Below, one piece after another: positions 43,048-57,532 of a stretch of DNA of 64,000 bases. The position numbers and the translations under genes were made by a program. The first letter of the stretch is position 1, and each line of letters begins with the position of its first letter. Source of the DNA: a bacterium. Lineage in GTDB: Bacteria; Patescibacteriota; Minisyncoccia; Phycocordibacterales; JAKAEA01. The stretch lies in contig JAJYGQ010000003.1 in assembly GCA_021785065.1 (NCBI GenBank), positions 2,470 to 66,469 on the forward strand, in the 5' to 3' direction. The notes below the pieces were generated by a model. It ran no database searches, had not been told where the DNA came from, and worked only from the letters and a program-made list of their open reading frames with translations.

Positions 43048-43967
43048 AGCTCCTACCTGAATATGTTGATCAAAAAATTCCACTGCCGCTCGTAAAGGCC
43101 CTTAACAACGGCTTTTATGTCCGCGGCAACGCGGATTTTTTGTTTTCCGAACGATTGTTGCTTGAAAAATACATTCCGTCGCGGCACGACTTTCTAGCAT
43201 CGGCAACGATGTTAGAGGGGTCTTTATAGTGTCGTAGACGGGCAGGTAAAACAATACTGTTATTGAGAATCTTTGATTCCAGATAACAGAGTATATTAAT
43301 TGTGGTTCTTACATTTCCTGACGGGAATGTAAGGGCATATGGTGGATGCCTTGGCTTCAAAAGGCGATGAAGGACGTAGCATAACTGCGATAAGCTTCGG
43401 GGAGGTGTCGAGCAACCGTCAATCCGAAGATTTCCGAATGAGGAAACTCCCGCGTTTTAACGCGGACGTTTGCGCTTGACGCAAACGAGTATACCCAGGG
43501 AAGTAAAACATTTCAGTACCTGGAGGAATAGAGACCAATCGCGCAAGCGAATGGAATTTCCTAAGTAGCGGCGAGCGAAAAGGAATGAGCCCAAACCCGA
43601 TTCCACCTTTGCTGTTTGACGAGAGTCGAATAGCGGAGGTGCGATCGGGGGTTGTAAGGCGGTAACGTCACTTTTATAGTGAGAAGAGTTACAAAATGAG
43701 ATAGTAGCGGAACGTGCTGGAAAGCGCGGCCCCAGAGGGTAATGGCCCCGTACGCGAAACTAACTCATCTCTTTTGTTACCGTTCTTGAGTACCTCGAGA
43801 CACGAATGGCTCGGGGGAATCCAGCGGAACTAACCGCTAAGGCTAAATACTTTTGAAGACCGATAGTGAACTAGTACCGTGAGGGAAAGGTGAAAAGCAG
43901 CCCGGTGAGGGCGGTGAAATAGACCTGAAACCATATGCCTACAAGGAGTCAGAGCGGGGTACCACTT

Positions 43968-44385
43968 TGCGTGGTATGACGTTCTCAAAATAAAATTAAG
44001 AAAATTTATCTTTCATTCATCAAAATTTTATTGCTGAATATATACACTTTTATTGTGTACTATGTTTATGTAATACAAAGTTTGATGGATACAACCTTCT
44101 ACATAGGTTATACGAATTCAATTGATCGAAGATTGAAAGAACATAACTATAGTAAGGGTCGCTTTACCAGGAAACATATTCCCTGGAAACTTGTTTACTA
44201 TGAAGCATTTAACGACAAATTTCTAGCGAAACGTCGAGAAAAGATGCTCAAAGAAACCAGTAGGGCTTGGCAAGAATTACGAAAACGTCTCGGTGTTAAT
44301 TATCGAGAAAAAAAATCGCAAACAAATCCAGCCCAAGATATATTATTTTCTAAGTAAGTTTATAATTGAGGATGTCATAGTGCCT
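43968..44385 (+). mobile_element. about 415-nt AT-rich insertion in 23S helix-25 region (IVS-like or intron) carrying a GIY-YIG ORF
   Basis: Flanked by a perfect 13-bp helix GGGGTACCACTTT / AAAGTGGTACCCC; E. coli-equivalent position about 540-550, the classic IVS site. Confidence 0.6.
44031..44357 (+). CDS. GIY-YIG family nuclease (small stand-alone type) encoded inside the 23S insertion
   Basis: YVYVIQS...FYIGYTNSIDRRLKEHN plus downstream Arg/Glu catalytic residues. Confidence 0.75.
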   Translation: MLNIYTFIVYYVYVIQSLMDTTFYIGYTNSIDRRLKEHNYSKGRFTRKHIPWKLVYYEAFNDKFLAKRREKMLKETSRAWQELRKRLGVNYREKKSQTNPAQDILFSK

Positions 44386-46099
44386 AAAGTGGTACCCCGT
44401 CATGGCGTGCCTATTGAAGAATGAGCCAACGAGTTCTAGCATCCTGCGGGCTAAAGGCGCGAGCCTGGAGCCGCAGGGAAACCGAGTGTGAATAGCGCGT
44501 TTGTAGGATGCTAGAGACCCGAAGCCAGAGCGATCTACCCATGTGCAGGGTGAATGGTGCCGAAAGGCACCAGGAGGCCCGAACCGATAAGCCGTTCAAC
44601 ACTTTCGGATGACATGTGGGTCGAAGTGAAAAGCTAATCGAGCCTGGTAATAGCTGGTTCTCTCCGAAATAGCTTTTGGGTTAGCGTCGAATGTTCCCAG
44701 GGGGGGTAGAGCACTGGAAGGTCTCGACAGGGCGAAAGCTCGCGAGACCTATCAAACTCCGAATACTCTTGGTTAAAAGTTCGGCAGTTAGACTGTGGGG
44801 GCTAAGCTCCATTGGTCAAAAGGGAAACAGCCCAGATCTCCAGTTAAGGTCCCTAAATTTATGCTAAGTGCACTTAAGGTGGTAGAAATTCTCTAACAAT
44901 GAGGAGGTTGGCTTAGAAGCAGCCATCCTTTAAAGAAAGCGTAACAGCTCACTCATCGAGAGTTTCCGCGCCGAAGATAATCGGGGCTAAGCATAGTACC
45001 GAAACTGAGGACATTATTTTTCTTCGGAAAAATAGCGTGGTAGGAGAGTTTTCGTGTTGCGATGAAGGCGAAGGGGTGACCCACGCTGGAGCGTCACGAA
45101 GTAAGAATGTTGGCACAAGTAACCGCAATCAGTGTGAAAACCACTGACGCCGAAAGATCAAGGTTTCCTTGGCAATGACAATCAGCCAAGGGTTAGTCGG
45201 TCCTAAGGGGATGGCGAACGCCGCACCCGATGGATACATGGTTAATATTCCATGACTTTTGTGTTAGGCGATGAGAGGACGGAGTGCAGTATCCCGAGCA
45301 CCTTATTGGATTGGTGTTCGTGTCGTGAGAGTGGCGTGTAGGAAAATCCGCACGCGGCCGTAAGGCACATTCAAGCGAAGCGAAGCTGTTGAGGGCGACC
45401 TCGACCAATTCGGGAAAGCGCGCTTCCAAGAAAAGTCTCTAAGCTTACTAACACAGAAACCGTACCGCAAACCGACACAGGTGATCAGCTCGAGTAGAGC
45501 AAGGCGAACGAATGAGAAGTCCCCAAGGAACTCGGCAAAAAAGCGGCCGTAACTTCGGAATAAGGCCTGCCTATCGCAAGATAGGCCGCAGCTAAAGTAT
45601 GCTTGGCAACTGTTTACCAAAAACACAGCTCCCTGCGAACTCGAAAGAGGATGTATAGGGGGTGACACTTGACCAATGCCAGAAGGTCAACTATCGGCGG
45701 TGCGATTATATCAAGCTGACTGGTACAAGCCCTGGTGAATGTCGGTCGTAACTATAACGATCCTAAGGTAGCGAAATTCCTTGTCAGGTAAGTTCTGACG
45801 CGCACGAATAGTGTCATGACTGAGCAACTGTCTCGGGGACCCGTTCGGTGAAAATACAATACCGGTGAAGATGCCGGTTACCTGCAGCTAGACGAAAAGA
45901 CCCCGGAAGCTTTACTGCAACTTGGTATTGAGCGTACGTTGTTGATGCGTAGCATAGGTGGGAGAGGTTGAGGGCATGATCTCGGTTGTGCCGGACTCGT
46001 CAGTGAAATACCACTCTTCATAGGTGTACGTTCTAACCCGCGCGGCAAAAACGCGCGGAAACAGTACTAGGCGGGCAGTTTTAGTGGGGCGCTATCCTC

Positions 46100-47059
46100 A
46101 ACTTTGGGCGCCTCAGATTTGGTAAATGGTTCAAACGACCCTCCACCAAGTCAAATTATAAAATCAGGGGGACTTTAGTCCGTAAGGGCTATCGAAAAGT
46201 TAGCTATATGCTGGAACATCCGAGTATCTTTATGTACTCGCTCAAGTTTTTTGAGCAGTGAAAATCGTAAAGTGCGGACAATCAGCAGGAAATGCTCCTA
46301 TTCTAATATTTTTATTCAGCATAGAAGCAAATCCTCAGAGACTACACGCTAACCTCCGCGAAAGCGGATGATGATATAGTCCGATCTTTGTGGCGACACA
46401 AAGCTTACTACATATAGTAAGACCATTAATGAACACTAAGGAAATTCGGGAGTACAAAAACACTCTCAAACTTACTGACATTCAAAAATCTATTCTCGTC
46501 GGAACATTGTTGGGCGATGGACATTTAGAGACGCAAGATAACGGTAAAACGTATCGTCTCAAAATTGAACATCAGTTAGCCCAGCAAGACTACACGGAAT
46601 GGCTTCACAGCCACTTCAAAGAGTGGGTTAGAAATGGAATGTATAGAAAAGTAAAATCACAAGGTAAAGAATATGTCGGATTTACCACATATTCGCACGG
46701 CGCCTTCAGATTTTACGCTCAGCAATTTTACACTGAGAAAAAGAAACATATTCCCAGAATGATCAGTAAATTGCTAAATCCATTAGTTGTTGCGATCTGG
46801 TTTATGGATGATGGTTCGTGGAAATCAGAAAAACACGAAACCTTCATAATACATACGCTCGGATTCACAAAAGAAGATCTTACGTTGATACAAGATTCGT
46901 TTAGAAAATTGTTCAATATAGAAACTTCACTTCATCGACAAAAAGAAAGATATTGGAGGTTGTATATACGATCAAGTTCCGCAAAAGAATTTGAAAAACT
47001 AATACAACCTTACACATCACTCGTTGATTCTATGAAGAAAAAGATGGGTAACAATAAGC
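46100..47059 (+). mobile_element. group I intron in 23S rRNA (domain V, before CTAAAGAGTAACGGAGG) encoding a LAGLIDADG endonuclease
   Basis: Exon sequence resumes exactly at CTAAAGAGTAACGGAGGAG; intron contains AGAGACTACACG (P7/J8-7-like); ORF stop codon lies in the downstream exon. Confidence 0.7.
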
Positions 47060-47070
47060 CTAAAGAGTAA
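46390..47070 (+). CDS. double-motif LAGLIDADG homing endonuclease
   Basis: ILVGTLLGDGHL and VVAIWFMDDGS motifs about 100 aa apart. Confidence 0.85.
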   Translation: MATQSLLHIVRPLMNTKEIREYKNTLKLTDIQKSILVGTLLGDGHLETQDNGKTYRLKIEHQLAQQDYTEWLHSHFKEWVRNGMYRKVKSQGKEYVGFTTYSHGAFRFYAQQFYTEKKKHIPRMISKLLNPLVVAIWFMDDGSWKSEKHETFIIHTLGFTKEDLTLIQDSFRKLFNIETSLHRQKERYWRLYIRSSSAKEFEKLIQPYTSLVDSMKKKMGNNKPKE

Positions 47071-56892: not shown

Positions 56893-57345
56893 ATGCGTCA
56901 GTTCTTTCTCATTTCGGGGATGGTGTTTCTCATTTCTCATGCAGCTGCTTTTGGTAGCTACAGTAGGAATCGATGGGAGATCATCCACAGGCTTATTCCT
57001 GCTTTGATACAAGTGGAATCGAGCGGGAATAATTGGAAGGTTGGAGACAAAAAACGCTTCTATAAGGCGTATGGTTGTCTCCAAATAAGGGAGCTGATGT
57101 GTATCGACGTTGACAAACGTTGGCACACACATTACAGGGCCTCTGATTGCTTAGGCAATCGGAAGCTCTCGATTCTCATCTGCCTGCGGTACTACCGTTT
57201 GTACGATACCGCCCGGGTGGTCGGTCACCGACCAACTCTTGAGGACTTGGCCCGCATGTGGAATGGCGGACCGTACGGTTTCAAAAAACGGAGTACTGTA
57301 GGCTACTGGAGGAAGGTCCGCAAAGTCCTTCACTCTCAGGGATGA
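56893..57345 (+). CDS. small secreted lysozyme-like/lytic transglycosylase (SLT-domain) protein
   Basis: Signal peptide; IQVESSGNNW...AYGCLQIRE matches the SLT catalytic Glu-Ser and GLMQ(I) motifs. Confidence 0.6.
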   Translation: MRQFFLISGMVFLISHAAAFGSYSRNRWEIIHRLIPALIQVESSGNNWKVGDKKRFYKAYGCLQIRELMCIDVDKRWHTHYRASDCLGNRKLSILICLRYYRLYDTARVVGHRPTLEDLARMWNGGPYGFKKRSTVGYWRKVRKVLHSQG

Positions 57346-57358
57346 GTTCTTGATATAG

Positions 57359-57392
57359 GCCGTGACTAGACCACACTAGTCACGGCTTTTTT
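57359..57392 (+). terminator. rho-independent terminator
   Basis: GCCGTGACTAG-accaca-CTAGTCACGGC followed by TTTTTT. Confidence 0.8.
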
Positions 57393-57458
57393 CTTGGTTG
57401 GTTTTTGAAAATCTTTTGCCAAGTGGCGTTTTTTCTGCTATATTTCTCCAGCGTAGAT

Positions 57459-57532
57459 GGGCGTATAGCTCAGGTGGTTAGAGCGCGTCACTGATAATGA
57501 CGAGGTCCCACGTTCGAGTCGTGGTACGCCCA
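57459..57532 (+). tRNA. tRNA-Ile (anticodon GAT)
   Basis: GGGCGTATAGCTCAGGTGGTTAGAGCGCGTCACTGATAATGACGAGGTCCCACGTTCGAGTCGTGGTACGCCCA; cloverleaf with anticodon loop cTGATAa. Confidence 0.9.

Follow-up and report, generated by a model that had tools for sequence, protein, structure and literature searches.

Introduction

Unlinked ribosomal RNA (rRNA) genes were found in 27 of 34 circularised genomes of the Candidate Phyla Radiation (CPR) by Lui, Nielsen & Arkin (2021), with a clade-specific pattern (PMC8172020), and the S1 Table of that study lists circularised Paceibacteria in which the 16S and 23S genes are unlinked, the 5S gene lies nearer to the 16S and the separation is 6.5-16 kb, with individual values of 6492, 9070 and about 11.6-11.8 kb (PMC8172020). 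Brewer et al. reported that unlinked rRNA genes are strongly phylogenetically conserved, with the Patescibacteria (CPR) forming a cluster that has them (bioRxiv 10.1101/705046; ISME J 2020), and Camanocha & Dewhirst (2014) described the order 23S-5S-16S in three genomes of the CPR lineage SR1 (Absconditabacteria) (PMC4192840). Further afield, a 16S gene split from a 23S-5S pair is known in reduced genomes, with Rickettsiales/Wolbachia, Buchnera, Mycoplasma gallisepticum and Borrelia among the examples cited in PMC8172020. Here we describe the rRNA locus carried on a stretch of 64,000 nt (contig JAJYGQ010000003.1 of assembly GCA_021785065.1, positions 2,470 to 66,469), hereafter the window, in which 23S-5S and 16S-tRNA-Ile are separated by six protein genes and a mobile element follows the tRNA.

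Very probably (roughly 0.85), the locus is the single-copy rRNA locus that is standard in the Parcubacteria/Paceibacteria, a group of CPR bacteria, with an ancient split and an element that arrived later. Membership of that group is indicated by the closest SecD loci, which are labelled as members of it, and by a 16S tail without the anti-Shine-Dalgarno (anti-SD) motif. The split layout is already known and published for Paceibacteria. The window shares with the genomes of Lui et al. the class, the kilobase separation (6951 nt) and a 5S nearer to the 16S, here on the same strand and with the 5S adjoining the 23S; that paper gives distances only, leaving out intervening genes, the retained tRNA-Ile and promoter or leader structure, and the present genome lies outside its set. 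The distance also exceeds the 1500 bp between 16S and 23S by which Brewer et al. define unlinked genes, and the relatives examined here show the same conservation, while gene order and intervening gene content are left aside in that work. As in SR1, 23S-5S stands ahead of 16S on one strand of a CPR genome; in SR1, however, the three genes are described as one operon, whereas here 6.8 kb, six protein genes and a separate promoter-like site with its leader divide 5S from 16S. The reduced genomes, so far as that citation describes them, likewise combine a small genome and single-copy rRNA genes with a 16S apart from the 23S-5S pair, but they belong to other phyla, represent independent events and often show much larger distances. 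According to Brown et al. (2015), as relayed by Tsurumaki et al. (2022, PMC9297842), most CPR 23S genes hold insertions totalling 0.5 kb to several kb, and the 23S gene of the window likewise carries insertions of 0.3-1 kb, including a LAGLIDADG group I intron. In the literature that could be searched, no paper was found that says which genes are conserved in the interval, or that the stretch from 5S to the first protein gene lacks promoter and terminator signals; these intervening genes and a possible read-through from 5S into them are mildly new points.

Gene order at the rRNA locus

RNA genes were called with Rfam at gathering thresholds, tRNA identity was assigned by ARAGORN and protein domains by Pfam, giving the following order.

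43319-48004, + strand: 23S rRNA gene (Rfam RF02541 LSU, 2181 bits, model positions 1-2925, full-length)
48075-48184, + strand: 5S rRNA gene (Rfam RF00001, 77.8 bits)
48223-49056, + strand: h277, 277-aa conserved hypothetical protein (no Pfam match at the usual cut-off)
49031-50185, + strand: SEDS (FtsW/RodA family) gene (Pfam PF01098, E = 1.2e-86)
50197-51573, + strand: bacterial sugar transferase gene, Bac_transf (Pfam PF02397, E = 9.9e-60)
51638-52987, + strand: secD (Pfam)
52998-54014, + strand: secF (Pfam)
53993-54643, + strand: h216, 216-aa hypothetical membrane-type protein (weak profile matches only)
54956-56562, + strand: 16S rRNA gene (Rfam SSU, 1341 bits, full-length)
57459-57533, + strand: tRNA-Ile(GAT) (ARAGORN; Rfam tRNA match 57459-57532)

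The order on the + strand is thus 23S-5S, six protein genes, 16S and tRNA-Ile(GAT), with a spacer of 70 nt between 23S and 5S, 6771 nt from the end of 5S to the start of 16S, 6951 nt from the end of 23S (48004) to the start of 16S (54956) and 896 nt from 16S to the tRNA, which is the only one that ARAGORN detected in the 64-kb window. A preliminary description, made from the sequence alone, had placed 23S-5S about 7 kb upstream of 16S on the same strand, with SEDS, sugar-transferase and secDF genes between them; the Rfam and Pfam coordinates agree with it, and the rRNA genes are confirmed as unlinked and in non-canonical order. All features from 43020 to 56748 point the same way, and neighbouring genes overlap or lie close together. 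The locus departs from a canonical 16S-tRNA-Ile/Ala-23S-5S operon in its reversed order, the six protein genes, the separate promoter and leader predicted before 16S and the terminator-like hairpin after it. No second 23S gene is present in the 7.4 kb after 16S in the window or in a further 3.3 kb of L085, and a search for rRNA pseudogene relics in the remainder of the window and on the downstream contig returned chance matches of 12-18 nt only.

The split order in related genomes

A SecD scan of one genome per GTDB species gave 576 relatives, of which the best 80 loci (SecD 49-67% identical) were examined by mapping onto them the rRNA exons (blastn) and proteins (tblastn) of the window and by calling tRNAs with ARAGORN. 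These loci, given L numbers where they have to be told apart, carry names such as Paceibacterota, Parcubacteria, Taylorbacteria, Kaiserbacteria, Nomurabacteria and Yonathbacteria; many TPA MAGs among them are labelled 'Candidatus Saccharibacteria', presumably in a generic sense. The comparison of rrn organisation in related genomes, which the preliminary description had recommended, showed that the split order recurs. In 37 loci the 277-aa/SEDS genes are immediately preceded, on the same strand, by a 23S and/or 5S gene, and this holds for 24 of the 25 loci whose sequence extends 1.5 kb or more upstream of the 277-aa gene; the 16S gene lies downstream of SecF on the same strand, 282-5105 nt away, in 37 of the 80. 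Both 23S(-5S) and 16S surround SecDF on one contig in 19 loci, with parent contigs of up to 158, 231, 502 and 733 kb. Past the 16S, tRNA-Ile(GAT) is found within 2 kb in all eight loci that reach at least 1.6 kb beyond it (same strand in seven, opposite strand in one). Judged from these alignments, the order 23S-5S, h277, SEDS, (sugar transferase), SecD, SecF ... 16S ... tRNA-Ile is old and widely shared in the group.

A mobile element after tRNA-Ile

The preliminary description had the tRNA-Ile(GAT) follow the 16S and a mobile element follow the tRNA, which ARAGORN and the recombinase and Rep domains bear out, with the refinement that the gap before the tRNA contains a 150-aa open reading frame (ORF), ORF150. 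The inserted DNA carries the following features.

57488-58987, - strand: large serine recombinase (integrase), 499 aa (Pfam Resolvase, Recombinase and Zn_ribbon_recom; phrog_95 integrase, E = 4e-78)
59024-59782, - strand: rolling-circle replication initiator, Rep (Pfam REP_ORF2-G2P, E = 2.4e-22; phrog_3419)
60108-62766, + strand: remaining low-GC inserted DNA, with a 314-aa ORF, a structured repeat region, a ClpP/head-maturation-protease-like ORF and two small ORFs
61467-62009, + strand: the ClpP/head-maturation-protease-like ORF, within that DNA

Catalytic Resolvase, Recombinase and zinc ribbon stand together in one protein of about 500 aa, the make-up of a large serine recombinase, and part of the inserted DNA has a GC content of 0.37-0.42. 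The last 46 nt of the recombinase gene overlap the 3' half of the tRNA-Ile gene on the opposite strand (57488-57533). Its last 15 codons and stop codon lie antisense to that half, and therefore the C-terminus of the recombinase would differ between the integrated and the excised state; crossover probably takes place within the tRNA gene.

On the downstream contig, pyruvate kinase, RadC and a Mur ligase appear only after an insertion of about 7.5 kb, which holds, with the recombinase first, Rep, the 314-aa ORF, the ClpP/head-protease-like ORF, small ORFs and a radical-SAM gene; its right end lies beyond the window, and the extent of about 7.5 kb is deduced from the tRNA-Ile adjoining pyruvate kinase in relatives. 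A search that allowed up to 3 mismatches revealed no attR-type copy of the tRNA 3' end, and no convincing flanking repeat was seen either. The att sites of serine recombinases share very little sequence, and the missing repeat of the tRNA end is thus unsurprising. Pyruvate kinase follows tRNA-Ile directly in L016, L019 and L071, with a MurD-like ligase next in L019, and RadC is nearby in L058; these relatives lack the element but are too distant to place its exact right boundary. No recombinase or Rep homologue stands beside tRNA-Ile in the relatives examined. Because pyruvate kinase adjoins tRNA-Ile in relatives with the same rRNA split and no element, the sequence comparison indicates that the rRNA genes were already apart when the element entered between tRNA-Ile and pyruvate kinase.

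Within the element, a GC-rich non-coding region (61054-61429) contains a perfect 74-nt tandem duplication (61224-61297 and 61298-61371) and is flanked by 21-nt inverted repeats (61054-61074 and 61409-61429, 95% complementary), with further inverted repeats. It has no Rfam match; it may serve as an origin of replication or att region, or encode a small RNA.

Promoter-like sites, leaders and processing helices

Promoter-like sites were scored as matches to a 12-position consensus, and terminator-like hairpins were also predicted from sequence. The 23S unit shows the following elements.

43020-43047, + strand: promoter-like site TTGACG-16-TATAAT (11/12 matches, about 270 nt upstream of 23S)
43157-43167, + strand: boxA-like GTTGCTTGAAA in the 23S leader (2 mismatches to GTTCTTTGAAA)
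43250-43327, + strand: 5' arm of the 23S leader-trailer helix, pairing with 47994-48073
47994-48073, + strand: 3' arm of the 23S leader-trailer helix, occupying the spacer before 5S

Those of the 16S unit and of the stretch from it to tRNA-Ile are as follows.

54651-54679, + strand: promoter-like site TTGACA-17-TATACT (11/12 matches, about 277 nt upstream of 16S)
54681-54703, + strand: leader hairpin, downstream of the promoter-like site
54706-54716, + strand: boxA-like GTTCTTTGAAA, following the leader hairpin
54893-54923, + strand: 5' arm of the 16S leader-trailer helix, pairing with 56684-56709
56684-56709, + strand: 3' arm of the 16S leader-trailer helix, pairing with 54893-54923
56718-56748, + strand: terminator-like hairpin closing the 16S unit (14 bp stem and T-run)
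56784-56811, + strand: promoter-like site of ORF150 (consensus match)
56893-57345, + strand: ORF150, between 16S and tRNA-Ile (no Pfam, NCBIfam or PHROG match)
57357-57388, + strand: second terminator-like hairpin, after ORF150
57416-57444, + strand: promoter-like site before tRNA-Ile (consensus match)

The sites at 43020 and 54651, each of which had been put forward as the TTGACA-type promoter of its rRNA block, are indeed promoter-like and, at 11/12, fit the consensus best of all sites in the region. In L027 the 23S gene is preceded by a comparable site at -272. The boxA-like motif of the 23S leader is weak on its own, as 15% of background 400-nt windows contain such a motif. The GTTCTTTGAAA of the 16S leader corresponds to the boxA of Gram-positive rrn antitermination leaders, and by analogy with the known rrn boxA it may act in antitermination. 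Upstream features of 16S were compared between 37 related loci and background 400-nt windows: a near-consensus promoter 140-365 nt upstream of 16S occurs in 19 of the 37 relatives (7% of background windows), a boxA-like motif in 24 (15%), and a promoter with a boxA-like motif 37-76 nt downstream of it in 10 (1%).

RNase III-type leader-trailer complementarity is present around each mature rRNA. The 23S duplex (78/80 nt) has a predicted free energy of -74.4 kcal/mol, compared with -24.2 +/- 3.3 for shuffled sequences (z = -15), and the 16S duplex one of -53.5 kcal/mol (z = -3.6) with a run of about 25 contiguous pairs, while cross-pairing of 16S with 23S flanks stays at shuffle level (z about 0.4-0.5). 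Hairpins similar to the one at 56718, with stems of 14-17 bp, lie 155-215 nt after 16S in 4 of 10 relatives; ORF150 is not conserved at its position between 16S and tRNA-Ile. From these predicted signals we infer that 23S-5S and 16S are transcribed from separate promoters and that the 16S unit is closed by a terminator.

Assembly, age and transcription of the split locus

Contigs misjoined at conserved rRNA sequence could mimic a split locus, and overlapping contigs were sought through exact-protein look-ups. An ENA MEGAHIT contig corresponds to window positions 36358-43956 (100%) and carries rplJ-rplL, the 209-aa ORF h209 and the first 637 nt of 23S; contig 17 of GCA_027328845.1 corresponds to 47360-55539 (1 mismatch), with the 23S 3' end, 5S, the six genes and the first 584 nt of 16S; and contig 15 of the same assembly corresponds to 55927-64000 (2 mismatches), with the 3' part of 16S, ORF150, tRNA-Ile and the recombinase, and runs past the window. 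Other contigs thus span all the places where an rRNA gene meets a protein gene, including the points at about 43.0 and 54.9 kb where the preliminary description had advised looking for coverage breaks as a sign of assembly error, both of which are covered at 100% or with 1 mismatch. What speaks for an artefact is that the short-read contigs from the same population break inside the rRNA genes, at 43956, 47360, 55539 and 55927, and that the joins of the window inside 23S and 16S are not covered by the other contigs found. Nevertheless, 19 relatives hold 23S ... SecDF ... 16S on one contig, parents of 158-733 kb among others, L067 has h209-23S-5S-h277 and L016, L019 and L071 have SecF-16S-Ile-pyruvate kinase, matching the window across each internal join, and the window has no second rRNA copy to mediate a misjoin, so that we give an artefact practically no credence. 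The proposal that a canonical operon of this lineage was broken recently, through insertion of the mobile element at the spacer tRNA-Ile, has two points in its favour: the recombinase gene adjoins the tRNA gene and overlaps its 3' half, and the usual place of tRNA-Ile(GAT) is the rRNA spacer, as in E. coli rrnH. However, the same split is found in relatives with SecD down to about 50% identical, dozens of species-level relatives (SecD 49-67%) in all, without an element at tRNA-Ile, and in relatives it is pyruvate kinase, not 23S, that follows the tRNA. Moreover, insertion alone is insufficient, because an element inserted after tRNA-Ile would give 16S-Ile-element-23S and would not put 23S-5S upstream of 16S. 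A recent break is very improbable on this evidence. The idea of the preliminary description that an ancestral operon was broken gains from the tRNA-Ile kept with 16S here and in all eight relatives, as would be expected if an ancestral 16S-tRNA-Ile-(Ala)-23S-5S operon had come apart between its spacer tRNA and 23S; the proposed link to the mobile element is not supported.

With separate transcription of the two rRNA units there competes the reading that transcription runs from 23S-5S through the six protein genes into 16S as one long unit, a permuted and expanded operon to which the 16S promoter merely adds. Besides the uniform direction and short or overlapping spacings from 43020 to 56748, it is in keeping with the gap between 5S and h277, which in the window measures 39 nt, with neither a promoter nor a terminator predicted in it; most relatives agree, their gaps (median 233 nt) being free of a terminator in 21 of 26 loci and free of a near-consensus promoter in 23 of 26. 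No terminator-like hairpin is predicted between the 216-aa gene and 16S in the window either, the boxA-like element of the 23S leader could render RNA polymerase resistant to terminators, and a compact 23S-5S-16S operon exists in SR1 (PMC4192840). Against a single unit stand the conserved strong promoter-like site and the boxA-like leader of its own before 16S, the varying spacing and content between SecF and 16S (282-5105 nt, with a tRNA-Leu in some relatives) and the 15 relatives with 16S elsewhere, and a lack of predicted terminators is weak evidence. We consider a single unit unlikely and prefer separate promoters; read-through from the 23S-5S unit may still account for at least part of the expression of the protein genes behind 5S.

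Several observations count against a standard and anciently split locus. No sequence trace of a rearrangement mechanism was found, the leaders of 23S and 16S being without homology and rRNA relics missing. Homology between the leaders was sought because it would support tandem duplication with reciprocal loss; by local alignment, in the window and four relatives, the similarity of the 23S and 16S promoter-leader regions is at shuffle level, except for a weak promoter-only match in L027 (z = 2.4). The interiors of 23S (43957-47359) and 16S (55540-55926) lie outside the other contigs found, and continuity there rests on synteny. L059 is the one exception without 23S-5S at the expected place. The position of 16S is not fixed across the group, as 15 of the 80 loci have none within 5.2-9 kb downstream of SecF; these 15 have at least 5.2 kb past SecF, and the other 28 contigs of the 80 end too early to tell. 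Among the long loci lacking a 16S detectable by BLAST, Rfam confirmed its absence in 7 of 7 rescanned. Lastly, promoter-like sites in the region total 29, as against 23.8 +/- 5.5 in shuffled sequences, which is not above expectation, and the promoter and terminator calls are consensus matches only.

Masked sequence was ruled out as the reason for missing 16S genes in relatives, since no N-runs cover the rRNA positions. In L059, about 3 kb without rRNA by Rfam (1-3680) separates the homologue of the 209-aa ORF from the 277-aa gene, and rplJ-rplL has moved downstream; this locus appears to be a secondary rearrangement of the block. The contig end at 43956 lies 4 nt before the helix-25 insertion of 23S and that at 47360 lies 33 nt before the position-2593 insertion; the contig ends suggest population variation in the presence or absence of rRNA insertions, or branching of the assembly graph at conserved rRNA.

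Building on the observed gene identities, order, conservation, helices and motif matches, and assigning promoter, terminator and antiterminator function conditionally, we propose that an ancestral 16S-tRNA-Ile-23S-5S operon was rearranged long ago, before the sampled lineages diverged. This would have put 23S-5S before, and 16S-tRNA-Ile after, a conserved set of genes in the same orientation (277-aa protein, SEDS, sugar transferase, SecD and SecF). One unit would comprise the promoter at 43020, a leader, the 23S with three insertions and its own processing helix, and 5S, probably reading into the protein genes, and the other would comprise the promoter at 54651, the hairpin and boxA-like leader, the 16S with its own processing helix and the terminator at 56718; ORF150 and tRNA-Ile would each use a promoter-like site of their own. 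The serine-recombinase/Rep element would have inserted later, at or in the tRNA-Ile 3' end and before the pyruvate kinase gene. For the rearrangement itself, possible routes are tandem duplication with reciprocal loss, transposition of one half, or expansion of a compact SR1-type 23S-5S-16S operon.

Insertions in 23S and other features of the locus

The 23S gene is 4686 nt long, a size explained by three insertions that the preliminary description did not mention and that were placed by alignment to E. coli rrlH and four relatives.

43960-44389, + strand: insertion 1, 430 nt, after E. coli position 544 (helix 25)
46099-47058, + strand: insertion 2, 960-nt group I intron, after E. coli position 2262
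47393-47714, + strand: insertion 3, 322 nt, no ORF, after E. coli position 2593

Insertion 1 encodes a 108-aa GIY-YIG-only ORF (44031-44357, E = 1.2e-15), and its ends form a very long terminal stem (minimum free energy -150 kcal/mol, z = -10). By its predicted structure it resembles an intervening sequence removed by RNase III rather than a group I intron, and excision of such an intervening sequence would leave the 23S fragmented. Insertion 2 matches RF00028 with 77.9 bits at 46133-46403 (gathering score 50) and carries a LAGLIDADG homing endonuclease ORF (46390-47070; LAGLIDADG_2, E = 1.6e-43), by which it is classed as a bona fide group I intron with a homing endonuclease, interrupting a conserved 23S site; it is missing from L042, L067 and L070. 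Insertion 3 is group I-like, with an RF00028 match of 31.9 bits, below the gathering score, and a folding z of -5.3; L067, L070 and L071 carry insertions at the same site too. In two relatives, tRNA-like genes lie within the 23S span: L072 (1886-2196) has Asn(ATT), Phe(GAA) and Lys(TTT) inside a 23S insertion, and L083 (847-1201) has two Rfam tRNA matches. They are either unusual insertion cargo or a sign of a split 23S.

Compared with E. coli, the 16S gene is longer by about 106 nt between positions 1115 and 1174 (window 56039-56204), an expansion segment, and the 16S genes of relatives align poorly at positions of about 1120-1245 of the window 16S. Its 3' tail (window 56512-56565) reads ...GUGGAACAUUUCAAGG instead of ...GGAUCACCUCCUUA, and the CCUCC anti-SD motif is missing. 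CCTCC is likewise missing in all 11 relatives with a complete 16S 3' end (L016, L019, L020, L027, L040, L042, L043, L051, L058, L070 and L071), whose tails are A/T-rich (GGA[A/T]nnTT...). Loss of the anti-SD motif has already been reported for a subgroup of Parcubacteria (PMC9297842).

Just upstream of 23S sit rplJ (41340-41843) and rplL (41815-42303), with h209 (42358-42987) between rplL and 23S, and in the region viewed (window 37965-42987) a 1080-aa beta-helix/lipase-like protein precedes rplJ. The genes rplK-rplA usually precede rplJ. Parcubacteria lacking the anti-SD motif are reported to overlap with the group without ribosomal protein uL1 (PMC9297842). For the 277-, 216-, 209-, 150- and 314-aa ORFs, Pfam, NCBIfam and PHROGs gave no useful function beyond a borderline, weak FxLYD-domain match in h277; by eye, motifs of ORF150 (QVESSGN ... 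GCLQI ... WNGGP) resemble a lytic transglycosylase.

Implications

The arrangement is genuine, being neither a misassembly nor a recent event caused by the element, and it should not be flagged as unusual in CPR/Paceibacteria genomes. Contigs of metagenome-assembled genomes (MAGs) of Paceibacteria typically break inside rRNA genes, and the order rplJL-h209, 23S-5S, h277-SEDS ... SecDF, 16S-tRNA-Ile, pyruvate kinase can be used to scaffold or check fragmented Paceibacteria MAGs.

The locus also raises the questions of whether the protein genes behind 5S are co-transcribed with it and whether synthesis of 23S and 16S is coupled in a cell with a single, split set of rRNA genes. It is conceivable, if rather doubtful, that the whole block of 23S-5S, h277, SEDS, sugar transferase, SecDF and 16S is one read-through 'supra-operon' in Paceibacteria. 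The large-subunit rRNA may then be transcribed first, and the envelope and secretion mRNAs may be 3' extensions of the pre-rRNA, because most genomes have no promoter or terminator between 5S and the 277-aa gene, while 16S may be fed both by read-through and by its own promoter. If this were true, the rRNA genes would be permuted and interrupted, yet still transcriptionally coupled to each other and to growth of the cell envelope.

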